The translations under genes were made by a program, and so were the position numbers. DNA of 64,000 nt, from the NCBI GenBank assembly GCA_964507055.1, contig CAZDOJ010000002.1:687-64686 (forward strand), given 5' to 3'. Position 1 is the stretch's first letter. Each line of letters opens with the position of its first letter. The stretch comes from an uncultured Gammaproteobacteria bacterium (GTDB lineage Bacteria > Patescibacteriota > Microgenomatia > Levybacterales > UBA12049). Positions 2,425-24,278 of the stretch are shown here, piece after piece. A model generated the notes under the pieces. It did not search any database and had not been told where the DNA came from. It was given only the letters and a program-made list of their open reading frames with translations.

Positions 2425-2436
2425 GGGAATTGACCA

Positions 2437-5400: not shown

Positions 5401-8400
5401 ACTTCTAATCCATGGTGTAAGGATACGACAGGTGTTACTTGTATTGCACCAGATGGTACTTCAAGTGGTTGGTCAGAGAGAATTAAAATCTCAATAAATA
5501 ATGATGATTCTGATGAAACACTTACTGATTTCCCATTACTCGTAAAACTCAATTCCAGTAGGGTCGATTACAATAAAACACAAAATAGTGGACAGGATAT
5601 TCGTTTTGTCGACCCCGCAAATCCTAGTGTCGTTCTTTCTCATGAAATTGAAGTATGGAATGAGTCTGGAGATTCCTATGTTTGGGTAAAAATACCACAA
5701 TTACGGCCTGGAAACAATGATGTTATCTGGATGTATTACAACAATCCTTCAGCCGCAGATGGACAAGATGCAGCAAATGTTTGGAGCAATAATTACAAAG
5801 CTGTCTATCACATGGATGAACAGAGTGGCACAACCAATGCAGATTCGACAGCTAACACAAATGCTGGTTCAAAGAAATCCGCAACCGAACCAAACCCTAC
5901 AACATCTGGACCAATTGATGGGGCACAGGATTTTGATGGGACGGACGATTATGTCCGAGCAAATGATAGTAATTCATTGGACCTCGGTGCAACAGGAACG
6001 ATGAGTGTCTGGTTTAACCGAGATGGTATAGGTACATGGGATGCTTTGATTGCAAAAGGTAATGCAAATAATAGTGATATTCATAATTACGCCATGACGA
6101 TTAATACAAGTAATCAGCTTGCTGTGTATTGGGGAAATGGGTCTACTACAGAAACAATACAGACACCCACAACACTCACTAGCACTACAAATAATTACTA
6201 TGCTGCGAGTACATGGACAGGTAGTAATTACTTCCTTTATGTAAATGGAGCACAAAGCCAGACAGGAACCCAATCTATCACACCTGCCGCAAATACATCT
6301 CAATTGCGGATAGGTGAATTTGGTGGTAATGTCGACTACTTTAATGGTCTTATCGATGAAGTCAGAATTTCTTCAGTTCCTCGTTCTCAGAGTTGGATTG
6401 AAGCAGAATATTGGAGTGGTACTGATGCGATGAATACATTTAGTTCTGCTGAAAGTTATGCATCTCTTGGACAATCAATCTATCAAAGTACTCTTTGGTC
6501 AAGTGATACAGATAATCTTTCTGTTGAAGAGAATTCAAATGAGTCCACTTCAACAAATGATGTTCTAGAGTTGTTTACTAGTCCAACAGGTGTAAATCCA
6601 CCAGCAGCAGTTGCTGGTTCAGCAGAAATAACCTCATTTAATTCCAATGGGTTTAATATTAACTGGACGACAACGGATGGAACAGCACGTGAAGTTTTGT
6701 ATTGGACAGTAGGAAGTGTAACGGCATCACAAGAGGATTATCGGTGGTATAAAAATGCCAATTCGATAACGCCTGGAGTTGCTCTTGAAGATGAAAACTC
6801 TTCTACAATCATTGCTAAGAATAAGCCAACTGCTCGATTGCGTGCCAGTATGTCTGTTGGAGGAAATGGCTTGAATGCTTCATCACAAGGCTTTAAATTG
6901 CAATACGCAGCAGCAGGTGCAGAGTCGGCAGTCGGTGGTACTTCTGATTGGTGTAATGACACAACTGGTGTTACATGTATCGCTCCAGGACCACAAACAC
7001 AACAAACAGTGACTCAAACCGATTGGTGCAATGATGCGTCAGGTATTACCTGCGACACTAATTGGCAATATCGGCGTAAGATAACAATTAATAACTCAGC
7101 TTCAGGACAGACGTTAACTGATTTTCCATTACTTGTTAAGTTGGATAGTACAAGGATTGACTATTCCAAAACACAGAGTGATGGTGATGATCTCAGATTC
7201 GTTGCAGATGGTGCACCGACTGTTGTCCTCCCGCATGAAATTGAAGGAACATGGGCAAATAGTGGAACAAATTATGTTTGGGTCAAGGTCACACTAGCCT
7301 CTGGATCAACTACAGGTGCAATTTATATGTATTATGGCAATAACGGTGCTTCAAGTGGACAAGATGGCACAAATGTTTGGGATGGAAGTTATAAGGGAGT
7401 TTGGCATATGACAGAAGCTACAAGTACTGCAGGTGAAAATTACAAAGATAGTACAAGTACTAGTAATGATGGAACAGGTGGCGGCACTGGTCCTGGAGCA
7501 GGGACTGCAGGACGTAATCCAGCTCAAGCTACAGGCCAGATTGGCTATGGGCAGAGTTTTGATGGTGATAATGACGCCATCGGATTGCAAAGTAATACTC
7601 TTTATAATGCCAAAAATGCTTATACGATTGATGTTTGGATTAACCCAGACGATTGTGGAGATACCGCGACAAATGCAGCTACACTTTTTGAAAAACTTAC
7701 GGATATTTCAGAATTTTACATTTGTCGTACCAATGATAGAACATTAGCTTTATGGATTAATTCGACAGGATCCGATGCATATTCAAATACAAATGTAATT
7801 AGCTTTGGAGTATGGCAGCATATTGCAATAGTATATAACGGCTCCGGTACCGTTCAGATGTATGTAAATGGAGTTGCTGTTGGTATGACTGCTGCATCTT
7901 CAACTGAACCAACAAGTGATGGTGCAACCGCTACTGCCGTTATTGGTCAAGATGAAGCAGCAGGCGTATTAACAAGTTACAACTATGATGGACTTATGGA
8001 TGATATGCGTATCTCTGATACTGGACGTTCGGCCGATTGGTTGGAAGCAGAATATTTGACTGGAACTGATGCTATGAATTCATTTGGATCAGAGCAGACA
8101 TATCAAACGACAACTTCCACAAATGGGGGATGGGATATGCGAAAGAAGATTACTTTTAATAACGCAGATTCCACAGATAATCTTGCCAATTTCCCAGTTT
8201 TAATCAAGCTAGATTCTTCAAGAATCGATTACTCAAAGACGCAAAGTGCTGGACAAGATATCCGCTTTGTTGATCCATCCGATCCAACAACAGTTCTCCC
8301 ACATCAAATTGAAACTTGGAACGAAAGTGGGGCTTCGTATGTTTGGGTGAAAGTTCCACAGATCGATTCTGGTTCGGCTTCTGATTATATCTGGATGTAT

Positions 8401-10563: not shown

Positions 10564-10574
10564 TAGGACTCGGA

Positions 10575-11138
10575 TTGCTAATAATGTATACTAAAGACAT
10601 GGCTGAAAATGTCTTTAATCCAGAACAATTAGCATATGTAGAGCCCACCAAAAAACCTCGAAAGTTCTCATTCCTAAAGCCGAATAAGAAAGCATTTGTG
10701 ATCTCTTTAATCTTTGTGTTTGGAATAGTTATGGGTGCTGGTGGAATCTTTGGGTACTTACAGTTGAAAAAAACGCCAGTTCCTGTAGAACAGTTGCAAG
10801 ACGATAAACCTCCACAAGAGGTGCTCGGTTTAATTGAGACAGTTGAAAAGAAAGTTCCGAATATTCCCAAAAATGAAATTCCTTCCGTTGCTACGGTAAA
10901 AGATCTCGCAGACTTATCTGACCAGGAATTCCTTGCAGGTGCAAAAGTAGGGGACCGAATTATGATTTATTCTGCTTCCAAGCGTGCGATTCTTTATAGA
11001 CCAAGTACGAATGAAGTCATTCGCCAAGGTCCAGTTGAGATTATTGGAGAAGAAACGGATGAAGCAGAGAAAGCTTCCTCCTCTGCTGTGCTTTCCGCCT
11101 CAGACTCCGCAGTTCCTGCTTTACGGATTAAATATTAA
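10575..11138 (+). CDS. Hypothetical single-pass membrane protein.
   Basis: ORF with one hydrophobic helix (VISLIFVFGIVMGAGGIFGYL). No recognisable family. Confidence 0.4.
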   Translation: MLIMYTKDMAENVFNPEQLAYVEPTKKPRKFSFLKPNKKAFVISLIFVFGIVMGAGGIFGYLQLKKTPVPVEQLQDDKPPQEVLGLIETVEKKVPNIPKNEIPSVATVKDLADLSDQEFLAGAKVGDRIMIYSASKRAILYRPSTNEVIRQGPVEIIGEETDEAEKASSSAVLSASDSAVPALRIKY

Positions 11139-11178
11139 GCTAAGCAGCAAAGGAGTATAATACAATCGTTTACGAATT

Positions 11179-11251
11179 GCCGATGTAGCTCAACGGATAG
11201 AGCAATCCCGTCCTAAGGGAGAGGTTGTGAGTTCGATTCTCACCATCGGTA
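11179..11251 (+). tRNA. tRNA-Arg (anticodon CCT).
   Basis: Cloverleaf: acceptor GCCGATG/CATCGGT, D-arm GCTC-AACGGAT-AGAGC, anticodon stem/loop with loop GTCCTAA (anticodon CCT), T-arm GTGAG-TTCGATT-CTCAC, discriminator A. CCA is not encoded. Confidence 0.8.
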
Positions 11252-11262
11252 CTCAGGCTTAT

Positions 11263-11318
11263 GAGGAGGCCACCTGCTTGACAGGGGTGGTTGGAGGTTC
11301 GATTCCTCTCGACGGTAC
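11263..11318 (+). pseudogene. tRNA-like 3' fragment (T-arm plus acceptor 3' strand) with no matching 5' half. Possible tRNA remnant or integration scar.
   Basis: GGAGG-TTCGATT-CCTCT T-arm followed by CGACGGTAC. The upstream sequence does not supply a complementary acceptor 5' strand or a D-arm. Confidence 0.3.
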
Positions 11319-11486
11319 TTTATTCAGTTTTTATTATTTGGAATGCTTCACAGTATACTTTCTAAGCCCCTGAAATCTGTTCTAATAGCTCTATACCCTC
11401 TGAAACGGACATTTAGCTAACTCATCCATTTGTCAGGATTGTCATCAAACTCAGCGGCTTATATTGTATAGTGCTATTGGGAGGAG

Positions 11487-11756
11487 GTGATGAATATGGC
11501 AGAATTTGAAAGGCGGAGGCCAAGAACTCCGGACATGTCCCCAAATGCAGGCTTAGCCGGGGAATTGCGTAGGGCATTTACTGAACCTGCTCAAACGGAA
11601 GTTCCTGTGGACGTTATTGGCAAAGCAAAAGCTATCTTTTCAATGACCCAAACACGTGATCGTGTTGGCGAATTAGATATTTTACGCACCGAGATTGGGG
11701 ACAGAGCTGCTGATGCTCTTGATCCGCAGGTTACAATCTCTAAAGAAGTGAAGTAA
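11487..11756 (+). CDS. Hypothetical small protein (89 aa).
   Basis: ORF only. No recognisable motifs. Confidence 0.3.
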   Translation: MMNMAEFERRRPRTPDMSPNAGLAGELRRAFTEPAQTEVPVDVIGKAKAIFSMTQTRDRVGELDILRTEIGDRAADALDPQVTISKEVK

Positions 11757-11773
11757 TACTGTATAATCCACCC

Positions 11774-12517
11774 ATGACACGGAATGAGGCGATCAAGTTT
11801 ATTGTACTTAGAAGTCTGGGTAATTTTTTAGTGCTATTTAGTTTGTATGGTGTTGGAGCAACTTTTGGTCCAGCACTCACAGAACAAATAAAGTATGCAG
11901 TTATTCAAATGCGTGGAATAGAGTTTACTGTCCAGGCGGACAATACTTCAGTAAGTCAACCAAGTTTCACTCAATCATCTTCAGAATCAACTCCACAAGT
12001 CCCTCAGGATTCTATCGGACGAGATCTTGGATTTGCAGATGTACTTGCAGGGAGTAAAGAGCAAGTATTGATGCCGAAAGACCCACTGTTTAGTATATTG
12101 ATACCTAAAATAGGGGCATCTTCTAAAGTCTATCCAAATATTGATCCAGAGAATCGTGATGAATTTCTTCCGGTACTCCAACATGGTGTTGCCCATGCTA
12201 AAGGAAGCGTTTTTCCGGGCTATCCAGGCAATACCTATCTCTTTGCCCATTCAGCTGACAATTGGTGGGATGTAGGGCGTTACAACGCCGTATTCTATAC
12301 ACTCAATAACCTTTCCGATAATGATGAGATAGTCATCTTCTTTGAAAATCGAAGATATGATTATGTCATAAAGCAGAAAATTGTTGCGGATCCCAATGAT
12401 GTTACTTATCTAACCAATAAGCATGAAGGGCCACATAAGTTAATCTTGCAAACATGTTGGCCTCCAGGAACAACCTGGAAACGGTTGTATATCGTAGCTG
12501 AACCGAAGGCTACTTAA
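11774..12517 (+). CDS. Sortase-family transpeptidase.
   Basis: N-terminal membrane anchor. Conserved His region YLFAHS. Catalytic Cys in LILQTCWPP (the sortase TLxTC motif), followed by the conserved Arg (WKRLYIV). Confidence 0.6.
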   Translation: MTRNEAIKFIVLRSLGNFLVLFSLYGVGATFGPALTEQIKYAVIQMRGIEFTVQADNTSVSQPSFTQSSSESTPQVPQDSIGRDLGFADVLAGSKEQVLMPKDPLFSILIPKIGASSKVYPNIDPENRDEFLPVLQHGVAHAKGSVFPGYPGNTYLFAHSADNWWDVGRYNAVFYTLNNLSDNDEIVIFFENRRYDYVIKQKIVADPNDVTYLTNKHEGPHKLILQTCWPPGTTWKRLYIVAEPKAT

Positions 12518-13832
12518 GGCCAATTGAGTAGAGAGTAGGTGCGATACCTTGGTTATTAAAGTTCGTAAGCATAACAAGCTTTGAACCATCTGGCCAAGGG
12601 TAGACATAATCTTCAACAAATGGTCCTGCATACAGAGTAGTTAGATTGGATCCGTCATGCTCAATTACTTGGATCTGTTTGTTATTTACATAGAGCAAAT
12701 GCAGAGAATCTGGGAACCATGTGAGTGGTGATGGACATTTTCCGAAGACTTCGCACGTACAATCTTCAGATGTCAGCGTACACAGTTTATCTGTCTTTTC
12801 AAGCACTCTTGTATTCACATCTTCTTTGATGTTGTAGACATAAATTGCACCTTCTTCAATGTCACGTCGCTCGTACAGTAAGTTATTTCCAATTAGCCTT
12901 GGTCTCTTGAATATAGGCATCTCAGCTGAGGCTGATGCTTGATAGAGGAATTTATTATCATCTGGTGACCATGAAAGGATTCTCATGTTTTTCTGGGAGA
13001 ACTTTTGTATGTCTGATTTGAGTGATTTTAGCTGAGCAAGTTCTTTGTCCGATCGTTGCTGTTCCCAAAGTTCAAGAGTTGAAGTATATGTTGCTGTTAT
13101 GTCTTGTGGTGCTTCATTCATGCGATCTGCAGCAAGAAGATAATATGAAGTTAAACCATCTGGTGTTGCTGAAATACTTGCCATGATTTGTTTGCCATCA
13201 GGAGACCATGCAAGTTGAGCCTGAGAAAAGACATCTACAGTATCGTCGGCAATCTGTGTTGCAGAACTTTGTCCTGCTAAGACAGGGAAGTTCCGTGCAG
13301 TCATATCAAAGACATAGACACCATTTCTTCGTGCAGAATTGGAAGCTATATTGAATGCGAGTTTGGTTCCTGTAGGATCGATAAATGTCGATTGGATACC
13401 AAATGTAGAAATGCTTTGCAAAGTTGGAGCCTTTGGAAAGAGTGTCGCATCTGCACTATCTACAACTTCTTTCTGGATCTCAAAATCTTTTTGCCAGTCA
13501 TGGTAGCCTTCTTTAGCAATTTTGATTTTGTATTTTCCAGGAGTTAAGTTTAATTTATCGTTAGTTGAAGTTGTGGGGTTTGGACGATCATTGACGAAGA
13601 CTTGTGCACCAGTGGGGTTACTATTGAGATTCAAAATACCGGTTTTAGACAGCTGAGGATTTCCTTCTTGAACAAAAAGTCGATAGCCTTTGCCGTATAA
13701 AATTACTCCAGCAGTTGCAGTAAGAAGAAAAAGAAAAACCAATAACGAAACGAGAAATTGTCTTTTTGCTGAGTGCTGTGGGTGGTCATCCGGAACGGAT
13801 GGCTTCTTGATTTTGAGAAGCGATTTCTTCAT
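12510..13832 (-). CDS. Membrane-anchored PEGA-domain plus TolB-like beta-propeller protein.
   Basis: N-terminal TM. PEGA signature PGKYKIKIAKEGYHDWQKDFEI. Downstream SPDGK / SWSPDDNKFLY WD40/TolB-like repeats. Confidence 0.55.
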   Translation of the reverse strand: MKKSLLKIKKPSVPDDHPQHSAKRQFLVSLLVFLFLLTATAGVILYGKGYRLFVQEGNPQLSKTGILNLNSNPTGAQVFVNDRPNPTTSTNDKLNLTPGKYKIKIAKEGYHDWQKDFEIQKEVVDSADATLFPKAPTLQSISTFGIQSTFIDPTGTKLAFNIASNSARRNGVYVFDMTARNFPVLAGQSSATQIADDTVDVFSQAQLAWSPDGKQIMASISATPDGLTSYYLLAADRMNEAPQDITATYTSTLELWEQQRSDKELAQLKSLKSDIQKFSQKNMRILSWSPDDNKFLYQASASAEMPIFKRPRLIGNNLLYERRDIEEGAIYVYNIKEDVNTRVLEKTDKLCTLTSEDCTCEVFGKCPSPLTWFPDSLHLLYVNNKQIQVIEHDGSNLTTLYAGPFVEDYVYPWPDGSKLVMLTNFNNQGIAPTLYSIGLK

Positions 13833-14002
13833 ACGTCTATTAAATCAGATTATAATCCCATAAACTAGTCCTTGCAACTAAAAAACACGTTGTTATAATC
13901 GATTTATTGTTGCATATCGCACAAATGATATGGATGATGTATATTTTGATATATTAAGAATTTGCATTTTTTGTCTATAACTTTTATTATCACTAGAGTC
14001 TT

Positions 14003-15037
14003 ATGTTTTCACTTTCATTTCCTTCAAGTAAGAGAATCGGTATCGATTTAGGTACAGCCAATACACTCGTTTATGTTGTTGGAGAAGGAATTGTCCTCAA
14101 TGAACCTACCGTAGTCGCAGTCACTGCAGAAGAGAATCGTGTTGTTGCGGTTGGAAAAGAAGCCAAGGAAATGCTTGGCCGAACTCCAGGAAACGTAACT
14201 GCTTTACGGCCGCTTCGAGATGGAGTTGTAGCTGATTACACTATTACAGAAGCCATGCTTTCATACTTTATTGACAAGGTTTGTGGCAAAACTCGCTTTA
14301 TTAAACCTGAAGTTATGGTTTGTATCCCCTCCGGTGTTACACAGGTTGAGCGGCGTGCTGTTCTTGATGCCACCATGTCAGCTGGTGCGAAGGTTGCATA
14401 TCTGATTGATGAACCTTTAGCTGCTGCTATTGGTGCAAAGATTCCAATTGCTCAAGCTGCGGGACATATGATTGTTAACATTGGGGGAGGTTCCACTGAA
14501 TCTGCTGTTATTTCTTTGGGTGGTGTTGTTGTCCATAGTTCTGTTAGGGTTGCAGGTAATAAGATTGATGAGGCAATTGGTTCGTATATCAAAAAGAAGT
14601 TTAACTTACTTGTAGGAGAAACGACGGCGGAGACGATTAAGATTCAGATAGGTAATGCTGTTCCTGAAACTGAAGGCAAAAAGGATAGTAAAACGATGGA
14701 AGTTCGTGGCCGCGATACAATTACTGGATTGCCTCGAACAGTTATTCTTGATGAAGTGCAGATAAATGAGGCGATCAAGCCTGCATTGCTTGAAATTGTG
14801 AAAGGTGTTAAAGAAGTTCTTGAGCAGTGTCCTCCAGAGCTTGCTTCAGATATTATCGATAAAGGGATTGTCATGTCAGGGGGAACGTCGCTTCTTACCA
14901 ACTTCGATAAGCTTATGACGCAGATGACAGGTGTTCCTTGTCATATTGCCGAGGATGCGTTGCTATGTGTTGCAAGGGGAACCGGCGTAGCAATGGAGAA
15001 TATCGAACTGTATAAGCGTTCAATTAATAGAAGATAA
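14003..15037 (+). CDS. mreB: Rod-shape-determining protein MreB.
   Basis: IGIDLGTANTLVYV phosphate-1 motif, VCIPSGVTQVERRAV, IVNIGGGSTE. Actin-fold ATPase, 344 aa. Confidence 0.9.
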   Translation: MFSLSFPSSKRIGIDLGTANTLVYVVGEGIVLNEPTVVAVTAEENRVVAVGKEAKEMLGRTPGNVTALRPLRDGVVADYTITEAMLSYFIDKVCGKTRFIKPEVMVCIPSGVTQVERRAVLDATMSAGAKVAYLIDEPLAAAIGAKIPIAQAAGHMIVNIGGGSTESAVISLGGVVVHSSVRVAGNKIDEAIGSYIKKKFNLLVGETTAETIKIQIGNAVPETEGKKDSKTMEVRGRDTITGLPRTVILDEVQINEAIKPALLEIVKGVKEVLEQCPPELASDIIDKGIVMSGGTSLLTNFDKLMTQMTGVPCHIAEDALLCVARGTGVAMENIELYKRSINRR

Positions 15038-15268
15038 TATCCTGTAAGTATCAGTTATTTATAAAAAAAAGACTCTATGGAAACTTTAAAAGAAAATATT
15101 TTCACACTTAAAAGAGTAGTATAATAATTTAATTGAATTACTGACATAGAAATATCTATTTCAGGTTTAAATAAAAATTTATCCATACTTAAATATAGAG
15201 TAGTATTCTTGTACAACATGATGTATGAAGAACATTTTGTATTATATTTTTTAGATCTATAGTCGTCT

Positions 15269-15991
15269 GTGAAAATGCTTAAAAAACAATTAATATTAGG
15301 AGTAGGTATCACTGTCGCTCCGACTGCCGCTATCCTAGAGAATATTCTCATGCTTTTGTCTGAAGGGCAAAAAAAGTTTTTTATTGTTACTCCAAACCCT
15401 GAAATCCTTGTTTATGCACAATCACATTTAGACTACAAAGATAGGCTAAACAGTGCTGAGGTGTCTTTGGCTGATGGAGTGGGTGTGCTTATCGCAAGTA
15501 AGATTCTGGGGTTAGGGATAACAGAAAGGACTACAGGCGTGGATTTCATTGAAGAGCTGTGTAAAGCGTCTCGTGAAAAGCCTTTATCCATAGGATTTCT
15601 GGGTGGTAGAGGTGGCGTAGCAGAGAAGACTGCTGAGTGCTTGAAGCAGAAGTACCCCTGGATTAATGTAGTTTTCACAGGAGAGACATGGCTAGATCAA
15701 GGCGTGAAAAGTAAAAAGAAGATGGATATGCTTTTTGTTGCTTATGGTTTTCCTAAGCAAGAAAACTGGATTGTTGAAAATTTAGATAGACTTCCTGTGA
15801 CAGCAGCTATGGGAGTGGGAGGAGCATTCGATTATATAAGTGGTTCTGTCCCACGTGCACCTAAGATCATGAGAGTGGTTGGACTTGAATGGTTTTTTCG
15901 TCTTATCGTCCAACCTTGGCGACTCCGACGTCAATTAGCACTAGTGACATTTTTACAACTTACTCTAAAAGAAAAATTCTCTAGCCGTTAA
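15269..15991 (+). CDS. WecB/TagA/CpsF-family glycosyltransferase.
   Basis: FIVTPNPEILVYA, FVAYGFPKQENWI, AAMGVGGAFDYISG. Family-typical motifs and size (~240 aa). Confidence 0.7.
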   Translation: MKMLKKQLILGVGITVAPTAAILENILMLLSEGQKKFFIVTPNPEILVYAQSHLDYKDRLNSAEVSLADGVGVLIASKILGLGITERTTGVDFIEELCKASREKPLSIGFLGGRGGVAEKTAECLKQKYPWINVVFTGETWLDQGVKSKKKMDMLFVAYGFPKQENWIVENLDRLPVTAAMGVGGAFDYISGSVPRAPKIMRVVGLEWFFRLIVQPWRLRRQLALVTFLQLTLKEKFSSR

Positions 15992-16087
15992 TCTACTATA
16001 GACTGAACAATAATTCTTGCTGATCTATGAAAGTAGATCTACAGGATTATAGAGAAATTTTAATGCATCATACTAAATAGAGGCAAT

Positions 16088-17632
16088 TTGGTAACAAGTC
16101 AAAATGGCGAGTTGTACTTTGTGGTGGGAGTAGATGATTGGGGCAATGATGCAAATGCAACAGCAGGGAGTGGTTATATGATTCAAGATCAGCAAGCAGA
16201 TGTTGATACACATGAACGATTCTATACAGAAGCAAAAGTCGCAAATTCAGGAACACACGCAACCAATTTCACCATAGGGTCTGCTTCTAAGTGGGCTGTG
16301 ATCGGAGCATCATTCAAGCCAGCAGTGATAGCAAGTGGTTCAGGAACAGCTTCAGGATCTGCAACATTTACTTATGATTTAAATGGAAATATGGCGAGTG
16401 ATGGTGCGAAGTTGTATCAGTATAACGAAGCAAATCAGCTAAAGACAGTGAAGCTCGCAAGTAACAGTGCGACTATTGCAGAATATGTCTATGATTACAA
16501 AGGTCAAAGAATGGTTAAGAAAAATTACAACAATGGCACGCTTGCAAATACAGTCATCTCATGGAGTGATAGTTTTGAAACAAAAGCGATTGTAGGTGGG
16601 GGAACTGAAACGACAAACTACTATTTTGCAAATAATGAGTTGGTAGCGAAGAAAGATAACAGTGGCAATAAAGTCTACTTCCACAATGATCATCTGGGAT
16701 CGAATTCCATAACGACCAATCAAGCTGGATCACAGGTAGAAAATGTGACATATGACCCATGGGGTAAGGTCCTGGGAGCTGCGACACAGAGTAAGTATCT
16801 GTACACAGGACAAGAATACGACGGAGAGACAGGACTCAATTATTACGATGCTCGATACTACAATGCAGACATTAGAAGGTTTACCCAGCCAGATCCTATT
16901 GTTCAAGATGTCTATGATCCACAATCGCTTAATAGATATTCTTATGCCAGAAATAATCCACTAAGATATACTGATCCGACAGGTCATGCAATCTGGGATA
17001 CAATTGTAAATTCTGTTAAGCAAGCAGTAAGTGCTGTTCAATCGTTCTTCTCACCACCAAAGGCTCCTCCTGTTTATTCATCTTTGCCAGCATCGTCAAT
17101 TCCTTATCGAGGACCAATTAATACTCCTTCAGCCGGAAGGTCAAGTGGAAGTAGTAGCTCAAGTAGTAGTAATGGTGGCGGAAGTGGCGGAAATGGTAAT
17201 TTAGGAGGAGGCTCAGGTGGCAATTCAGGGCAAGGGAGCAATTATAATGGCTCTTCTCCAGTGGTTAAGAAAATAGTAGATAAAACTTCTTTTCCTTTGA
17301 ACTTAGCAGTTTCCGCATACTATGCTTATAGCATTCGTAACGATGTGCGAAAGGAGGCTCAAAATAGACCTGGTGGAGCAGACGATGGCACAGAGGGAGA
17401 TGCTTGGCGACATGCGCGTATTATGGAAATCTTGGTTAAAGATACTGGACCTGAGAATGCATTAATGATAGGTGTAGCACATGAAGTCCAAGGATTAACT
17501 AGCAAGAATTGGACCGCACAGGATAGCTTTATGGATATGCATAACAATGTTGTGTCTGTTTATGGAGTAAGTAATGGCTTAACACCAAATCAGTTGGTCG
17601 AAAAAAATATGCTATATTACTACAAGAAATGA
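16088..17632 (+). CDS. Short RHS/YD-repeat protein: a few YD repeats, the RHS repeat-associated core, then a ~230-aa C-terminal polymorphic-toxin-like domain. It starts at TTG and looks N-terminally truncated (orphan CT cassette).
   Basis: YD repeats (FTYDLNGNM, YVYDYKGQRM, YYFANNELVAKKD). Core motif YTGQEYDGETGLNYYDARYYNADIRRFTQPDPI ... NPLRYTDPTGH. A G/S-rich linker precedes a unique C-terminal domain. A stop lies immediately upstream in frame, and no ATG start is present. Confidence 0.7.
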   Translation: MVTSQNGELYFVVGVDDWGNDANATAGSGYMIQDQQADVDTHERFYTEAKVANSGTHATNFTIGSASKWAVIGASFKPAVIASGSGTASGSATFTYDLNGNMASDGAKLYQYNEANQLKTVKLASNSATIAEYVYDYKGQRMVKKNYNNGTLANTVISWSDSFETKAIVGGGTETTNYYFANNELVAKKDNSGNKVYFHNDHLGSNSITTNQAGSQVENVTYDPWGKVLGAATQSKYLYTGQEYDGETGLNYYDARYYNADIRRFTQPDPIVQDVYDPQSLNRYSYARNNPLRYTDPTGHAIWDTIVNSVKQAVSAVQSFFSPPKAPPVYSSLPASSIPYRGPINTPSAGRSSGSSSSSSSNGGGSGGNGNLGGGSGGNSGQGSNYNGSSPVVKKIVDKTSFPLNLAVSAYYAYSIRNDVRKEAQNRPGGADDGTEGDAWRHARIMEILVKDTGPENALMIGVAHEVQGLTSKNWTAQDSFMDMHNNVVSVYGVSNGLTPNQLVEKNMLYYYKK

Positions 17633-17653
17633 TAGAATATACGTGGAATATTT

Positions 17654-18289
17654 ATGAAAAATAAAAAAGGAAGTAATTTGGTTAATGATCTAGCTTTAAA
17701 AGGATTGCTTTTAGCATTAATCATTGTATTTGGAGTGTACTTATATATAGATTTAAATTCAGTTTTGTCCCAATCTCATAACTCTTCATCTATTGTTAAA
17801 GATAATCCTAGTAATAACTCAAAATCATATCAGAATACTTCCGACGGCTTTAACTTTGAATATCCAGCGAGCTATAATTTAGACGAAAAAAAGCAGGAGG
17901 GTAATACGTTACTTGATCTTGAAAAAGATAGTAAATTAGATCAAGATGGCTATTATTTGGTAAAGGGATCTTGGATCAGGATTACTTTTAAGAAAGACTT
18001 AAAGTCATTTATTCAGTATGTTCAGGAAGAAAATAAAAGAGTAGTAGAAAAAAATGAAGCAGGAATTGAAGAAAGAAATATTAACGGAATAGAAGCTTTA
18101 GAAGTTAATTATCATAATACCTATAGCCACCCTTTAAAGATTGCGGGCATAAAAAAAGTCTATTTAAAAAATAATAATGATGTTTTAGAGTTGTCATTAC
18201 AAGTTGGAAGAGAAACTACAAAAGTTGAATATGAAACATATATAAAAGAGTTTGATTCAGTTGTTAATAGCGTAAAGTTTGGTAATTAG
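17654..18289 (+). CDS. Putative immunity protein for the upstream RHS C-terminal toxin. Membrane-anchored, 211 aa.
   Basis: The gene starts 22 nt after the RHS stop on the same strand. N-terminal TM, no known family. The call rests on position only. Confidence 0.35.
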   Translation: MKNKKGSNLVNDLALKGLLLALIIVFGVYLYIDLNSVLSQSHNSSSIVKDNPSNNSKSYQNTSDGFNFEYPASYNLDEKKQEGNTLLDLEKDSKLDQDGYYLVKGSWIRITFKKDLKSFIQYVQEENKRVVEKNEAGIEERNINGIEALEVNYHNTYSHPLKIAGIKKVYLKNNNDVLELSLQVGRETTKVEYETYIKEFDSVVNSVKFGN

Positions 18290-18402
18290 TTATAACTTCG
18301 TAAACTTTCCGATGTAGTATCTTTCCATTCCTCATGTATAATATTTATAATGTTTAAGAAGAAGATTCTTGCTCTGCTTCCATATGGTATTGTTGCAATG
18401 CA

Positions 18403-18738
18403 GTGGTTACGAATCTCCCCAAAGATGCCTCTGTCGTGTCACAGAATAACATTACGCCGCATATAAGTCAGCGAAATGAGGTATTTACCCTCTTTCCTGA
18501 AAAGAAGGATTTTGTAAAGAATTCTCCATGCGGACAGAAGAGTTGTAATTGGTTCCGTTGGTCTGGCAATCCGCAATTTTTGATAGTGGATACATCAGGG
18601 GACTGGGATGCTAGAGGCTTATTAAGTGACCGAGAAAGCTTTGTAGATGGTCTGGAGAATTTAGAGAAAGCCAAGGTAATTCAAAAGGCTCACGAAAAAG
18701 GAGACGCCGTACTTTACAAGATTGTAAAACAGCCGTAA
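18403..18738 (+). CDS. Hypothetical protein (111 aa).
   Basis: ORF only. Confidence 0.3.
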   Translation: MVTNLPKDASVVSQNNITPHISQRNEVFTLFPEKKDFVKNSPCGQKSCNWFRWSGNPQFLIVDTSGDWDARGLLSDRESFVDGLENLEKAKVIQKAHEKGDAVLYKIVKQP

Positions 18739-18765
18739 AGAGGTTTGTGTGCAAATGCATCATTA

Positions 18766-20745
18766 TTATTTAGATCGCTTTAACGTCAGCAAATAAAGGC
18801 ATAGTAAGAAGAACGGAGAGAGCAATAGCGTAACATATCTTGCTTCTTTATTATCAAAAATATTTTGTATTTTATTTGCAATAAACTCTCCAAATTGACC
18901 TGGATTTGAGAGGAGGGCTTTTTTATCTACTTTTACCACATTTGTCAAAATTGTATCTGAAGAATTAATAATAACATCCTTATTTGCACGAGGGTCAGTA
19001 ATACTTAATTCAACAGTGTAGTTCTTATCTTTCGCATCTGGTATCGGTGGAAATCCCAATGGATATTTATTATTTTTTAAGCGTCCATCTAAATCGTATG
19101 TATTTACTGCATACCAATCTTTTGCTCCTTGTTCTTTAATCTTGAAAATGAAAGTTTGTTTTGTAGGTTTTCCAGTAGTCATTTGCTCATGCATATTAAC
19201 TGTCAGAATTTGCAGATTGGCATCTTGAGATGTGAAGTAGATCGTCACTTTTTCAGACTGCTTCATAGAAATCTTTGTGCTATTTCTCAATTCTACCGGT
19301 GAATATATGGTTGATTTTGCGATAGGGTATTCTTTGGAAAAGAAGTTGAAATTTGATTGATAGGAGCTTAATATTGCTACCACAAGTATCACACATGTTG
19401 CAATCAATGGTATAGAAACGCTCCTCGTAGAGAGTTTCTGTGGCACTTTCTTTAAAGAGACATTATTCGTACTAGTGCTACGGTTAAAATATGGCTTTTC
19501 AAGTAAATAGTACAATATCATCGAAGTAACGATAGTCAAACCAAAATGGAGTAGGATAGAAAGAAAATTACTCAATGGATCGGTTGGCTTATACAGCTCT
19601 TTCGCGATGAGTCCTACAGGAATGTGGCTAAGATATATAGAAAAGCTAATTGTTCCGAGAAAGACCAAAATCTTTGATGATAAAAGCTTTGACAGCATCG
19701 ATATATTTGATAGCGCCAAAGCTATGACAAATCCAAAAGGTATCGTCCAGAGGACATGAATCCATGGATCTAGGTTGACATTATCGGAATTGAAAAAAAG
19801 TGTTTTGCTAAAGATAGCTATGAAGAACAAGAGCACTGCAATAAATTGAAGTTTGCCCGAGAAAAATTTGCCCAAAGATTTAAAGATATATATGTTATTC
19901 CGATAAAGATGTGCCAAAACCATACCGCATATAAAGTAGTAGAAAAGTTGAAACTGCAAAATACCTAACCCATAAACTTTTTGAGACAGTATTTGGAGTC
20001 CTACGAAAAATGGTATAAGAGCAAGGAGGGTAATGACTTTCATAAAACGCTTTCTTTGTATCATAAATCCAATTAAAGGTACGCAAATCACCGGGTAAAC
20101 AATATAAAAAAGAACTTCTGAAGTAAGACTCCAGTAGACTCCATCAATCTGTGGGATATAGTTTCCAAATGGTAATGTAAGTGTTGCATTTACCATCCAA
20201 AGAATTGCATTGCGAACGTATTCGGGCAATTGTTGATTCAAAACGATTGGAGGTTGCCTCATAATCCAGAACATATAGAATAATGCAGAAAAGATTTGGA
20301 ACGCTAGAAATGAAAATAGAAGTGTTTTGTTAAGTACAATTGAAGAAATTTTCTTAATGCCGTAAACCCAAATAATATGGGAAATAAGTGCTAATCCAAA
20401 TATAAGACTTGTTTTCAAATACCAAGCCATATCTGGAGCGATGCGGTATAACACCATAACAGTACACATAGTAAGGAAAAGAGGAAAAATTCTGGTATAT
20501 CTCTTTTGAAGGAATTGTGTATAACTTGGAGGATTTGGATAAATATATGCCATTAAGAAACCGGAAAGAATAAACAGAAGCGTTACACCTGTTACACCAT
20601 TTGAAAATAATATCTGGGTAAAAAGGGGAGACCAATTTTGTGTAAGCGAGGTGAGTTCTACATGATTAAGAAATACCAAAATAATAGCAATTCCGCGGAT
20701 TCCATCTAGCACTTGTAATCTTTTAACATTTTTATCTTTTTCCAT
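18766..20745 (-). CDS. Acyltransferase-3 (OafA/YrhL-like) family membrane protein with a C-terminal extracytoplasmic domain.
   Basis: N-terminus LDGIRGIAIILVFLNH, typical of PF01757. About 10 TM helices, then a soluble C-terminal domain. Confidence 0.7.
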   Translation of the reverse strand: MEKDKNVKRLQVLDGIRGIAIILVFLNHVELTSLTQNWSPLFTQILFSNGVTGVTLLFILSGFLMAYIYPNPPSYTQFLQKRYTRIFPLFLTMCTVMVLYRIAPDMAWYLKTSLIFGLALISHIIWVYGIKKISSIVLNKTLLFSFLAFQIFSALFYMFWIMRQPPIVLNQQLPEYVRNAILWMVNATLTLPFGNYIPQIDGVYWSLTSEVLFYIVYPVICVPLIGFMIQRKRFMKVITLLALIPFFVGLQILSQKVYGLGILQFQLFYYFICGMVLAHLYRNNIYIFKSLGKFFSGKLQFIAVLLFFIAIFSKTLFFNSDNVNLDPWIHVLWTIPFGFVIALALSNISMLSKLLSSKILVFLGTISFSIYLSHIPVGLIAKELYKPTDPLSNFLSILLHFGLTIVTSMILYYLLEKPYFNRSTSTNNVSLKKVPQKLSTRSVSIPLIATCVILVVAILSSYQSNFNFFSKEYPIAKSTIYSPVELRNSTKISMKQSEKVTIYFTSQDANLQILTVNMHEQMTTGKPTKQTFIFKIKEQGAKDWYAVNTYDLDGRLKNNKYPLGFPPIPDAKDKNYTVELSITDPRANKDVIINSSDTILTNVVKVDKKALLSNPGQFGEFIANKIQNIFDNKEARYVTLLLSPFFLLCLYLLTLKRSK

Positions 20746-20881
20746 ATATTATCAGTTTAGTTTATTCTATAATTTCCGCCATTCAGGTGCAATAATCTAG
20801 AAATGCAGAAGTAATCCTGACGTCTAATTAAAAAGGAGGGGCTGTTCTTTACAAGATTATAAACAGCAGTAACTCTAAAAA

Positions 20882-22456
20882 TCAGTCAAGATTAGCTGCT
20901 TTAGGAAGTGAATAATTAAGAGTTTTGATATCGTTTATTTGTTGCTCCGTAAGCTCAGAAACTTTTGATTTCTTCATGTATAAACAAGTCTTTTGGGTAC
21001 CGTTTATTAACTGGATGTACGTATCCTTGGCAGTAGGAGGGATTAATTTGGTTGATGTTTGTTTACCACAATCAATGTAGTAAAAATCTGGTGGATGTTG
21101 TGCAAACATAGTTGTCCTTTCCTGAGCATATTCAGGAACACTACTTGTGACAGGATAATAAAAAGCGTATTTATAGGAAGAATCCCTTTTTGTTTGCCAA
21201 TAGATTAAACTATCCCAGTAGTCAATAAAAACTGTATCGTCTGCTTCAGATAAGATGTTCATGATAATGCCGTTTGTGTAGTACTTACTGTAGTTAATGG
21301 TAAATGCTTCCTCGCGATTTACATTTTCCCAAAGATATGTTTTGGGATAGACCAAAAGAGAAAGAAATAAAAGTGCGATAGGGATAAGGAGTAGCTTCGC
21401 AGCCTTTTTATTTATTTGGTAGATTTCCTTTACAAAAATAAATAAAGTAAAACAAAACATTCCAAACCAAACAATTGCATGATAGGCTACATAAAAATTG
21501 ACAGTGGAACCAACCCATCGAATATTTCCCAATCCAAGCAAGACCAGAAATAGGACTATTTTCCAAGGAGTATATTTTTTGTAGATCAGATATCCAATAG
21601 CCAAAAGAAATGTTATATCGAGTCCGATCAGTATAGTTCTGTAGAAATTCCAGCCTGATTCAAAAAGGATATATATCGGATAGAAAAAAGAAATCAATCC
21701 AGAATCAATTTTGCCATTGCTAGTAACTTCTACTGGTACAACGTATGTTGCGTTAACCGTAATTACTTGGTAAATAAAATCTTTCAGTGAAACAGTACAA
21801 AGGATGAGAAAAGTCAAAAGGAGAAAGGTGCTGATTGGAGCTACGTTCTTTATAAGAGGTCTGTTCCGCCAGAGGAGAATGGCGTACATAATTGCGACGA
21901 GTGGAATAAAAGGCTCACGCATAAAAACCACAAACCATGTGCAAATTGAGGCAAGGATAAGCTCAAACATGTGAATCTTCTTTTTTGAAAAACTTTCCCA
22001 GACCAGACCCAATAAGTAAATAATTGGATAGATGATAAATGATTCTGCGAGAAAGAGATTTCCGAAAAGGTAATACTTTAATGGTTCAAAAAACAAAGCA
22101 AAACCAATCCCTACGTACCGAAAACGATAAATCAGCAGAAGATTCGCAATGAAAGCAAAGGCAATAACAATAAGTCTATGATGAACAATCAATTCGTATA
22201 AAGAATTAGGATGGACGAAAAGTTGATACACATAACTGATGTATGGCATAAGCATTTGATGATGGAAGAAGATATCAGTGTAAAGTCTTCTCCCATGGTC
22301 CATAAAATAAGCTGCTACCATATTGGTATACTCGTCGACAAAATGGAATGTTGTTGCATGCTTAAAATATGTGAACGAGGTAAAAATAAGAAATGCGACT
22401 GTCAGAGTACTACTTATATAAAATAATTTTTTGGGATGTATTTGTTTTATTTTCAT
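20882..22456 (-). CDS. Polytopic membrane protein, possibly a GT-C-type glycosyltransferase or polymerase.
   Basis: More than 10 predicted TM helices. Located between an acyltransferase and two GT4 genes. No specific motif recognised. Confidence 0.35.
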   Translation of the reverse strand: MKIKQIHPKKLFYISSTLTVAFLIFTSFTYFKHATTFHFVDEYTNMVAAYFMDHGRRLYTDIFFHHQMLMPYISYVYQLFVHPNSLYELIVHHRLIVIAFAFIANLLLIYRFRYVGIGFALFFEPLKYYLFGNLFLAESFIIYPIIYLLGLVWESFSKKKIHMFELILASICTWFVVFMREPFIPLVAIMYAILLWRNRPLIKNVAPISTFLLLTFLILCTVSLKDFIYQVITVNATYVVPVEVTSNGKIDSGLISFFYPIYILFESGWNFYRTILIGLDITFLLAIGYLIYKKYTPWKIVLFLVLLGLGNIRWVGSTVNFYVAYHAIVWFGMFCFTLFIFVKEIYQINKKAAKLLLIPIALLFLSLLVYPKTYLWENVNREEAFTINYSKYYTNGIIMNILSEADDTVFIDYWDSLIYWQTKRDSSYKYAFYYPVTSSVPEYAQERTTMFAQHPPDFYYIDCGKQTSTKLIPPTAKDTYIQLINGTQKTCLYMKKSKVSELTEQQINDIKTLNYSLPKAANLD

Positions 22457-22558
22457 GGTATTAAGAGGAAGCTGAACTTTATTTTATATAGTTTATTATA
22501 CATACTTTAGGAGCAGTTTGGTCGATATCCTTTTGCTCAACCACATAGCCTTGAGATC

Positions 22559-23890
22559 ATGGCTAGAAGCTCTTCTATGCTCTTACCTTATCCTTACGCA
22601 AAACCACGGAAAAAGTTTACACAACAACACGATAATGAATCATGTTGTCTCAACAATAATCGTATGAAAATTCTTTACCTATTTAATTTTCCACTTTACG
22701 GGAACGGCAGTGCAAGTTTTCTTCGAGAACTTAGTGCTCAATTGAAAGATAAGCATGAAATTGCAATACTTTCTCCCGATAAAAGAAAGCTCGATGGCGT
22801 CAAACATTTCGTGGTCAGAGCACCACAAGATGGCGTGTTTGTCGGACATCCTGAGTTGCCAGGTGCTAAAAAATTCCAAGATATGGATGGTCGCGAAATT
22901 GGCGAGATCTATACCACATATTTGTGGTCAACGATCCAAGCAGTCAATGAATTCAAACCTGACGTTATTCACGTGTTCCACACAGCATATCTCCCAAGTA
23001 TCGCTCGTCTGATTAAATCTTTCTATGGAACTAAGTACATTATCACAACTCACGGAAGTGATTTAAGTTACTTTGAGCAAGATAAACGGTTTGCAGGACT
23101 CATGCGAGATGCCAATCGTGAAGCACGATTTATTACTGCCTGCAGTGATTTTACGAAGAAATGGTATACAAGAATGTTCGGCGAAGCATTAAAGAGAAAA
23201 ACCTCAACAATAGTTGGAGGAGTAAATCTTGATCATTACAAAAAAGATCCTGAGCAGATTGCAAAGATTAATGACATGTTTGGTCTTCACGGTAAAAAAG
23301 TTGTCTTATTCACCGGTCGCTTAACAAAGCATAAAGGAGTAGCTTATCTTATACGAGCTGCAAAGAGTATTAATGGGACAGTTTTGGTGGTAGGAGATGG
23401 TCCTGAACGACCTAACCTTGAGGCAGAAATCAAAAAGCATAAGCTTACCAACGTGATTATGGCGGGATATGTGGCTAATAAAGAACCATATTATCATGCT
23501 TTTTATGAAAGAGCAGATGTGTATGTTGCTCCAAGTACATGGGATGAGCCTTTGGGCTTGACCATTATTGAGGCTATGGCAGCTCATACTCCAGTTGTTG
23601 CGACCAAAAAAGGTGGAATTTTGTCAATCATTAATGACAAAGTAAATGGCTATCTTATTCCTTCAAGAAACGCGAGTGCGATTGCCGAGAACGTCAATAT
23701 GCTTTTAGAAAATGATAATTTACGAGCTGAAATAGGTGCACGAGCATATGCAACTGTGGAGGAGAAATTTAGTTGGAAAAAGATTGCTAAGAAGTTTGAA
23801 AGACAGTATGAAGAGCTAGTGGGGAAGAATTGGAAGAGGGAAGTACTGCCAATCGAAAAATTCTTCAACTGGGTCTTTGCAAGGAATTGA
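22559..23890 (+). CDS. Glycosyltransferase family 4 (GT-B).
   Basis: EPLGLTIIEAMAAHTPVVATKKGG, the E-x7-E GT4 motif. Confidence 0.8.
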   Translation: MARSSSMLLPYPYAKPRKKFTQQHDNESCCLNNNRMKILYLFNFPLYGNGSASFLRELSAQLKDKHEIAILSPDKRKLDGVKHFVVRAPQDGVFVGHPELPGAKKFQDMDGREIGEIYTTYLWSTIQAVNEFKPDVIHVFHTAYLPSIARLIKSFYGTKYIITTHGSDLSYFEQDKRFAGLMRDANREARFITACSDFTKKWYTRMFGEALKRKTSTIVGGVNLDHYKKDPEQIAKINDMFGLHGKKVVLFTGRLTKHKGVAYLIRAAKSINGTVLVVGDGPERPNLEAEIKKHKLTNVIMAGYVANKEPYYHAFYERADVYVAPSTWDEPLGLTIIEAMAAHTPVVATKKGGILSIINDKVNGYLIPSRNASAIAENVNMLLENDNLRAEIGARAYATVEEKFSWKKIAKKFERQYEELVGKNWKREVLPIEKFFNWVFARN

Positions 23891-24278
23891 TATTGACCTA
23901 TATGTACCCCATACTTTATAGTTTGATATACTAAGATAGTGAAAGAAAGACTTCCACTACTAGTTTATGGCCAAGGCCCTGTATTGAGCGAACAGCCCCG
24001 CTAAATTGTAAAAATGACTGATAGCCCATCCTATTTAACTCGAACTGATCGGCCTCAGACCGACTTAACTCCGTTCGATGGCAGAATGAACCGATGGGAA
24101 CAGGGAATAGGGTGGCCAGAAGAAGTAGAAGTGAAATTCCAACAGACTTTATATCCTCAAGCAGCGTAATTAGCAGCAGATATACATCAAGCGATAGCCT
24201 CAATTGAGTGCTCTTCTTATATAATTCTTACCTTATTTCTATATACTTCTTATTGCTGAGCTTTAGAATTGATGAGCT

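Follow-up and report, generated by a model that had tools for sequence, protein, structure and literature searches.

Classical Rhs, WapA and TcC toxins share YD repeats, an RHS-associated core (TIGR03696) with a pair of aspartates, and a variable C-terminal tip whose gene is adjacent to an immunity gene. Orphan modules, in which an rhs C-terminal tip and its immunity gene persist without the 5' end of the gene and without signals for translation and export, have reportedly been encountered as well. Here, we describe a locus of related layout in a 64,000-nucleotide (nt) stretch of contig CAZDOJ010000002.1 (GenBank assembly GCA_964507055.1), the whole of which is referred to as the window. On its forward strand the window carries an open reading frame (ORF) of 514 amino acids (aa) with a TTG start (16088..17632; the toxin ORF), followed by an ORF of 211 aa with an ATG start (17654..18289). 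The toxin ORF is 5'-truncated and orphan-like, and its C-terminal domain is a DUF6973/Min-Wnt domain of the Lipocone superfamily; the 211-aa protein is the best candidate for its immunity protein. The original prediction, made from the DNA letters, had correctly recognized a real orphan-like toxin cassette with a candidate immunity gene, and was mistaken about the part that is missing, about the rarity of such genes in this lineage, and about the fold of the tip.

Min-Wnt is a bacterial, catalytically intact relative of Wnt that forms the toxin tip of polymorphic toxins (PMC12419801). The inferred active site of the Lipocone superfamily consists of a His on helix H2, a Glu on H3 and an Asp on H4, together with a polar residue and a capping Gly, and its members are predicted to cleave the phosphate-linked head groups of lipid carriers (PMC12419801). 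The template for this proposed mechanism is TelC of Streptococcus intermedius, a lipid II phosphatase that functions exclusively outside of cells and is countered by the immunity protein TipC (PMC12419801); TelC differs from the toxin described here in belonging to another Lipocone family (prok-TelC) and in being delivered by a type VII secretion system via an LXG domain. Min-Wnt tips likewise lie C-terminal to RHS or other delivery modules and possess the same His/Glu/Asp on H2-H4, their Gram-positive versions have, as here, a 'poorly structured linker' before the domain, and their immunity proteins, like all those of the Lipocone superfamily, are transmembrane (TM) proteins or lipoproteins (Burroughs, Nicastro and Aravind 2025, PMC12419801). 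Patescibacteria are not named in the published table of Min-Wnt polymorphic-toxin lineages, the Min-Wnt immunity families listed there comprise BamE-like, jelly-roll, 4TM and Cys-rich domain proteins but none that is PsbP-like, and the short RHS carrier found here is not described (PMC12419801).

A second point of comparison is the BteO-BtiO pair of the T6SS (type VI secretion system) of Bacteroides fragilis GA3, in which the toxin belongs to the same family and its structure has been solved (PDB 9UU0). BteO kills only if it is sent to the periplasm, where it causes elongation, blebbing and lysis and is neutralized by periplasmic BtiO, and each of the substitutions R143A, H144A, H167A, E168A, D187A and D191A abolishes its toxicity (PMC12541434). 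No peptidoglycan hydrolase or amidase activity was found for BteO, the main text of that paper makes no mention of lipid II, and its authors propose a non-enzymatic binding to OmpA-family proteins (PMC12541434). A further parallel is that BteO acts only outside the cytoplasm, as the toxin described here would, and that its immunity protein is exported. BteO differs in that its delivery depends on a T6SS and in that it carries a TM helix at its N-terminus but no RHS repeats, BtiO has an OmpA-C-like fold in place of the PsbP-like one of the candidate described here, and the reported target, OmpA, belongs to diderm bacteria.

A mini-RHS segment with a Min-Wnt tip

The C-terminal part of the toxin ORF had been described as a unique ~230-aa domain with no recognizable fold. 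The DPTGH motif that ends the RHS core is followed by 214 aa, which divide into a linker of ~90 aa and a folded domain of ~115-125 aa that belongs to a known family. The linker (16988..17263, forward strand) begins with a short helix and continues as ~70 aa of low-complexity sequence rich in Ser, Gly, Pro and Asn (S24, G17, P9 and N8 among its 92 residues). The domain itself (17285..17629, forward strand; Pfam DUF6973, PF22322) contains the motif residues R441-H442, H465-E466, D479, D483 and N486-N487, in keeping with the family alignment motif DA(W/F/Y)RHA...A...HE...D...(M/I)DLHNN..G. In an exhaustive phmmer search of 1.84 billion representatives the domain had seven non-self relatives at E<=1e-3, all of which pass PF22322. 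Among these seven and further matches from a profile search, an RHS core ends directly upstream of DUF6973 in P0122, P0123, P0129, P0131, P0139, P0140 and P0171, and DUF6973 is therefore a recurrent tip of RHS proteins.

Profile comparisons connect this domain to BteO and to Min-Wnt. An alignment profile searched against PDB sequences recovered 9uu0, a maltose-binding protein fusion of BteO, with E=3e-15, and matched Wnt-5a, Wnt-7a and Wnt-8 with E-values from 1e-4 (Wnt-5a) to 0.8 through the RHxxW and LHNNxxGR motifs; hhalign paired the domain with BteO at 98.3%. This link exists at the profile level only, the two proteins having no significant pairwise similarity, and phmmer searches of PDB sequences with the C-terminal half or the domain returned glycine-serine (GS) linker noise, attributable to the S/G-rich linker, or nothing. 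Three Min-Wnt sequences from the source data of PMC12419801 score 41-52 bits on PF22322, and one of the three aligns with the toxin at E=1e-10 (BLASTP), which identifies DUF6973 with the Min-Wnt family. We found no useful literature on DUF6973 under that name.

The residues that matter in these relatives are retained. In the hhalign alignment R441, H442, H465, E466, D479 and D483 of the toxin are placed opposite R143, H144, H167, E168, D187 and D191 of BteO, the six positions at which substitution abolishes toxicity. H442, E466, D483 and N486-N487 sit on three consecutive predicted helices and match the Lipocone active-site pattern. An AlphaFold2 model of the domain, built with 57 sequences, is an all-alpha bundle of six helices (pLDDT 87, pTM 0.81), and its two best Foldseek matches in BFVD are DUF6973 phage proteins (TM-scores 0.68 and 0.56, prob 1.0). 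Against the PDB the same model gave no Foldseek match with E<1; the fold comparison thus missed 9UU0, and its second-ranking match, a weak one, was serum amyloid A3, which is also a Lipocone member. What had been an unknown fold thus becomes a testable prediction, that of a Wnt-related Lipocone tip with six critical residues known from BteO.

The carrier of this tip is an RHS segment of unusual brevity. Residues 222-300 of the toxin ORF match the RHS-associated core TIGR03696 with 79.7 bits against a cutoff of 32.5, and the core ends, as had been noted from the sequence, in DPTGH (residues 296-300). Two repeat profiles, PF05593 (RHS_repeat, 23.8 against a cutoff of 22) and TIGR01643 (YD_repeat_2x, 22.6 against 15.8), also exceed their cutoffs, and NF041261 (RHS_core) reaches 24 bits against a cutoff of 2000. 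The initial count of about three YD repeats was too low, because the segment, which we term mini-RHS (16364..16987, forward strand), extends over ~208 aa of YD-repeat beta-hairpins, and an AlphaFold2 model of residues 85-310, built with 111 homologues, has ~15 beta-strands (pLDDT 87). Foldseek matched this model to T6SS Rhs cores, teneurin YD shells and TcC proteins (E=2e-10, TMq 0.69), on which it superposes over ~190 of the ~1020 residues of Rhs cores, or ~16% of the shells (TMt 0.16-0.17). The RHS part of classical Rhs proteins, by comparison, spans ~700-1000 aa or more. The mini-RHS amounts to a small sector of the cage together with the autoprotease and, judged from the model, cannot form a closed cage that would enclose a toxin. 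Both autoprotease aspartates are in place, D269 in FTQPDP and D296 in DPTGH, with a predicted cleavage site after H300; D269, D296 and G299 are invariant among the 111 homologues, and the two aspartates correspond to the D1369N/D1391N pair of the deposited 'toxin cleavage mutant' of Tse15, which is among the matched Rhs cores. Autocleavage after DPxGH is predicted for the mini-RHS family as a whole.

A homology search with the toxin ORF recovered 1079 proteins at E<=1e-3. Only a few of them carry the name of an organism, and these are all from the candidate phyla radiation (CPR; Roizman-, Davies- and Paceibacteria), so an RHS gene in this lineage is not the surprise it had seemed. The best 120 of these homologues have a median length of ~420 aa. 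The first YD motif could be placed in 97 of these 120. From it to DPxGx the median distance is 208 aa and the longest 213, and at least 62 of the 97 possess a signal-peptide-like hydrophobic N-terminus (typically ...SSTxxPALA/A) directly before the mini-RHS. The toxin tips of the homologues have a median length of 187 aa and are diverse, including Tox-REase-7, HNH and GH-E domains and a ribonuclease. On the strength of these comparisons, ~420 aa is the normal full length of the family, most members of which would consist of a Sec signal peptide, a 208-aa mini-RHS and a variable toxin, and for that reason the absence of a 1000-aa shell is not in itself a sign of displacement. Unlike classical Rhs proteins, the toxin ORF has no PAAR, VgrG or other delivery domain, and its relatives use Sec signal peptides.

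The mini-RHS proteins thus make up a large and apparently undescribed RHS toxin family that is far too short for the protective cage thought to be the point of the RHS repeats. We found no useful literature on RHS polymorphic toxins in CPR bacteria, and the Sec-signal mini-RHS carrier, its abundance in the CPR and the PsbP-like immunity candidate appear to be undescribed in the literature searched. A more far-reaching proposal, which we put forward tentatively, is that the mini-RHS is a self-sufficient carrier and processing module that defines a class of cage-less RHS toxins used by CPR bacteria against hosts or competitors, with the PsbP-like protein as a new family of Min-Wnt immunity proteins. 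In the Roizmanbacteria assembly GCA_016215545.1 (L005, positions 1-5786), mini-RHS genes and gene fragments are interleaved with small soluble ORFs, which is the classical layout of a polymorphic-toxin array in a CPR genome.

Truncation of the toxin gene at the edge of a variable island

An in-frame stop at 16061-63 lies eight codons 5' of the TTG at 16088, in agreement with the non-ATG start just past an in-frame stop that was reported initially. Within this start region the toxin ORF retains the remnant of an N-terminal domain (16076..16321, forward strand), corresponding to the last ~71 aa of a domain that is complete in an 830-aa relative, P0002, and containing candidate starts at TTG 16088, GTG 16121 and ATG 16178. 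Homology to residues 153-261 of P0002 begins at nt 16076, five codons past the in-frame stop (tblastn and phmmer), and toxin residues 8-78 match P0002 residues 164-234 with 59% identity. Only the last third of the first domain of P0002 is present, and its second domain (residues 235-412) is absent as well. Neither a signal peptide nor a TM helix is present in the toxin ORF, in which no 19-residue stretch exceeds a hydropathy of 1.0. The lack of a signal peptide and the P0002 homology that runs to within five codons of the upstream stop together identify the ORF as 5'-truncated. The suspicion that the proper N-terminus had been lost was therefore well founded, although what is missing is a signal peptide or N-terminal domain and not an RHS shell of more than 1000 aa.

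The missing part was not found nearby. Sequence searches of the 64-kb window revealed neither the missing 5' part nor a homologue of the N-terminal fragment, and a pattern scan of GTDB genomes and Joint Genome Institute (JGI) metagenomes found no relatives of that fragment. The window holds no other RHS or DUF6973 ORF, in agreement with the original prediction that no full-length rhs gene is close by, and in four syntenic relatives the surrounding 10 kb are likewise free of RHS and DUF6973 genes. A giant 2708-aa ORF (2437-10563) was considered as a full-length RHS partner and rejected, having no RHS domain and no similarity to the N-terminal fragment. The cassette thus departs from classical orphan rhs modules in having, within these 64 kb, no full-length partner upstream in an array, and the view of it as a displaced tip and immunity module survives to the extent that the gene is truncated at its 5' end with part of the upstream region left.

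The truncation coincides with the border of a strain-specific segment. In the window, 11760-15922 is collinear by blastn with positions 6497-10654 of the closest genome, OZ246394.1 (L014), and 22561-24098 with its positions 10747-12277; the MreB proteins of the two share 96% identity, and the flanking DNA has a nucleotide identity of 80-84%. In OZ246394.1 the glycosyltransferase gene GT4 follows 25 nt after WecG, and the 6.6 kb from 15923 to 22560 are absent. In the window this island (15923..22560) is inserted between WecG and the GT4 gene and contains the toxin ORF, the PsbP-like ORF, a 111-aa ORF, and, on the reverse strand, an Acyl_transf_3 gene and a gene for a 524-aa membrane protein. 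The start of the toxin ORF is no more than ~150 nt from the left edge of the island. The island has a GC content of 0.356, against 0.396 for its left flank, and a repeat search found its ends to be without flanking direct or inverted repeats. It resembles a variable islet within an envelope-glycosylation locus, an arrangement that would mean that genome-reduced CPR bacteria keep polymorphic toxin/immunity cassettes in such islets.

The order WecG, toxin, 211-aa ORF and 111-aa ORF recurs in three independent assemblies (SRR14271336, SRR14271359 and SRR14271361), and the sequence of the toxin locus is identical across the three samples; the same junction in three assemblies rules out an assembly artefact. 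When WecG was used as bait, syntenic loci were retrieved from metagenome-assembled genomes (MAGs) of Patescibacteria and Levyibacteriota, which assigns the window to a CPR bacterium of the Microgenomates type.

Other members of the family show similar irregularities. The mini-RHS ORFs P0003 and P0046 begin within the C-terminal end of a beta-sandwich-type domain and lack a signal peptide, and truncated or modular mini-RHS copies may be recurrent. At the P0002 locus (L004), 5' of P0002 and its small TM ORF (1875-4727), a 221-aa ORF with a related C-terminal domain and a related 113-aa TM ORF are present (664-1685), forming a duplicated tip-and-immunity pair of the orphan type.

The candidate immunity protein and competing interpretations

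The 211-aa protein is encoded on the same strand as the toxin, its ATG following the toxin stop codon after 21 nt; the small downstream TM protein of the original prediction is thus confirmed, with one N-terminal helix and a gap one nucleotide shorter than the 22 nt initially given. The protein matches PF18933 (PsbP_2) over its full length (36 bits against a cutoff of 27), and the only hydrophobic helix, at residues ~14-32 (mean Kyte-Doolittle hydropathy 2.3), follows a Lys-rich N-terminus. It is predicted to consist of an N-terminal signal-anchor helix and an extracytoplasmic PsbP-like domain. Its position on the same strand and in the same island and its Lipocone-type membrane topology fit an immunity function. 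At five other Min-Wnt loci the downstream gene likewise codes for a lipoprotein or a TM-anchored protein; where the mini-RHS bears a different tip (L005, L012), the proteins encoded downstream are soluble. A PADLOC search gave no match, and we found no useful literature on PF18933/PsbP_2.

Taken together, the most probable interpretation, in our judgment, is that the toxin ORF is a 5'-truncated ('orphan') mini-RHS polymorphic toxin with a Min-Wnt tip and that the 211-aa protein is the best immunity candidate. What was observed directly is the identity of the domains, the 5' truncation, the presence of the island and the conservation of the key residues; export in the relatives, autocleavage, the target, the lack of delivery and immunity are deduced. 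In intact relatives, the Sec signal peptide would export the protein, and within the ~208-aa RHS segment, about one fifth of an RHS cage, the two core aspartates would cut after DPxGH and thereby release the variable toxin tip. The tip found here, a Min-Wnt domain on a long flexible linker, would attack the envelope from outside the cytoplasmic membrane. In this copy, which borders the 6.6-kb island, the export signal and the greater part of the N-terminal domain are gone, and because of these losses it is probably not delivered and, if made, would be harmless inside the cell. Anchored in the membrane, the PsbP-like protein would catch a toxin of this type on the membrane's outer side, and it would still protect against intact toxins from neighbours.

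That the Min-Wnt tip would act on the envelope from outside the cytoplasmic membrane is well supported by analogy with its relatives. Its chemistry would most likely be cleavage of the head groups of polyprenyl (lipid II-type) carriers, the alternative being binding of a peptidoglycan-associated protein, as reported for BteO. In cells that lack an outer membrane, a Min-Wnt toxin exported by Sec would have direct access to its target. In a bacterium of this kind, such as the present one, the OmpA-binding model of BteO cannot apply as such, which makes the locus well suited to telling whether Min-Wnt toxins act enzymatically on lipid II-type carriers or as binders.

Several observations count against parts of this interpretation, the first of them concerning the tip. 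The domain scores 26.3 bits on PF22322, just below the gathering cutoff of 27, and it has Ile in place of the family Trp in RHAxW and Ser in place of the helix-capping Gly. The authors of the BteO study argue for a non-enzymatic mechanism through binding of OmpA (PMC12541434), a protein not expected in a cell without an outer membrane, and no Min-Wnt protein has a demonstrated enzymatic activity.

A second set of observations bears on the 211-aa protein. Downstream of P0122, P0129 and P0140, the nearest RHS-Min-Wnt toxins, lie genes for homologous PEGA-like lipoproteins and not for PsbP-like proteins. These small lipoproteins, which follow RHS-Min-Wnt toxins in unrelated samples (L053 2459-2779, L006 6584-6982 and L008 4677-5099), share the PEGA-like motif 'G.E(I/V)Y(I/V)D..(V/I)G.M' and are likely the immunity family of that clade of Min-Wnt toxins. 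The fetched loci, a small sample of 811 kb, contain no PsbP_2 relative beside another Min-Wnt or mini-RHS gene, and the 211-aa gene has a GC content of 0.28 (0.283), compared with 0.41 for the toxin gene and 0.39 for the window. PsbP/Mog1 proteins moreover follow RHS-CapCone-1 toxins in 89 loci, where they are read as T6SS delivery adaptors and not as immunity proteins (PMC12419801), and the full-length PF18933 match places the 211-aa protein in a broader family. These facts leave room for a reading in which the toxin assignment is right while the 211-aa protein is an unrelated envelope protein or serves as an accessory or adaptor, and the true immunity gene has been lost or lies elsewhere. 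We consider this possible but the less probable of the two, given that the gene lies 21 nt downstream of the toxin, on its strand and in its island, and that every Lipocone immunity protein known or predicted so far shares its topology, with one signal-anchor and an external domain. Adaptors of T6SSs, by contrast, reside in the cytoplasm, and a T6SS is not to be expected in this bacterium. The 211-aa protein is also a singleton in its 90%-identity cluster, and no close relatives came to light in pattern scans of GTDB genomes and JGI metagenomes, as is typical of fast-evolving immunity genes. Identification of the 211-aa protein as the cognate immunity protein is accordingly the best reading and probably correct; if so, a PsbP-like membrane-anchored protein would represent a new immunity family for Wnt-like (Min-Wnt) toxins. 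An arrangement of different architecture is found at L011 (4594-9614), where four tandem DUF6973/Min-Wnt genes (203-267 aa, without RHS) alternate with paralogous 156-158-aa TM-anchored ORFs in what looks like a toxin/immunity array.

A third set concerns the state of the toxin gene. Its reading frame is intact over 1.5 kb, with all catalytic and autoprotease residues kept, its sequence is identical in three samples, and Shine-Dalgarno-like sequences precede two of the candidate starts (AGAGG 4 nt before TTG 16088 and GGGAG 7 nt before ATG 16178); with an intact frame and plausible ribosome-binding sites, the ORF may still be expressed and used. The long relatives P0002 and P0113 also have no obvious signal peptide, as is the case for P0003 and P0046, and since this is so in P0002 and P0113, a missing signal peptide is no proof of non-export. 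On such grounds the ORF could be regarded as complete and working, its short N-terminal region being functional and the protein leaving the cell independently of Sec through lysis, vesicles or epibiotic contact. We regard this as unlikely, because the homology to P0002 spans only the last third of its first domain and ends at the in-frame stop, the left edge of the island lies within ~150 nt of that stop, and most family members possess a classical signal peptide; the 96-nt gap 5' of the toxin ORF, in addition, has no sigma-70-like promoter, a weak test for this lineage. The truncated copy is thus probably a dead or silent remnant. This state limits its own importance, and the toxin tip and the general system are of known kinds.

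The idea that the Lipocone domain is no weapon and serves the cell's own envelope biosynthesis, acting on polyprenyl-linked intermediates from WecG, GT4 and the acyltransferase, is very improbable even though the locus is rich in envelope glycosylation genes and many Lipocone families are housekeeping lipid-head-group enzymes (PMC12419801), for a position behind an RHS core and autoprotease is what characterizes the tips of polymorphic toxins, the same mini-RHS is joined in its relatives to nucleases and other toxin domains, Min-Wnt shows enrichment for the category 'biological conflict' (p listed as 0.0 in the source data of PMC12419801), and the toxin gene is absent from the closest genome, where the glycosylation genes are conserved.

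Neighbouring genes and related records

The 111-aa ORF (18403..18738, forward strand) has a weak and tentative Pfam match to DUF2079 (E=0.0095), covering positions 371-400 of the 459 in the model, and may be the 3' fragment of a DUF2079-type membrane-protein gene, which would make it a second gene fragment in the island. Its last 62 nt form one copy of a direct repeat, D1 (18667-18728 and 20802-20863, 73% identity), the other copy of which, beyond the acyltransferase gene, is degenerate and contains stop codons. This repeat suggests successive insertions at the site.

Upstream of the island, the 2708-aa ORF contains an M23 peptidase domain, four LamG_3 domains, four DUF2341 domains and internal nucleotide repeats, and is followed by a sortase gene (11774-12517). 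Two records labelled 'uncultured Gammaproteobacteria', OZ246394.1 (L014) and CAYMJR010000001.1 (L016), are syntenic with the window and with the Patescibacteria and Levyibacteriota MAGs, with MreB proteins that are 87-96% identical, and because of this synteny they are probably mislabelled.

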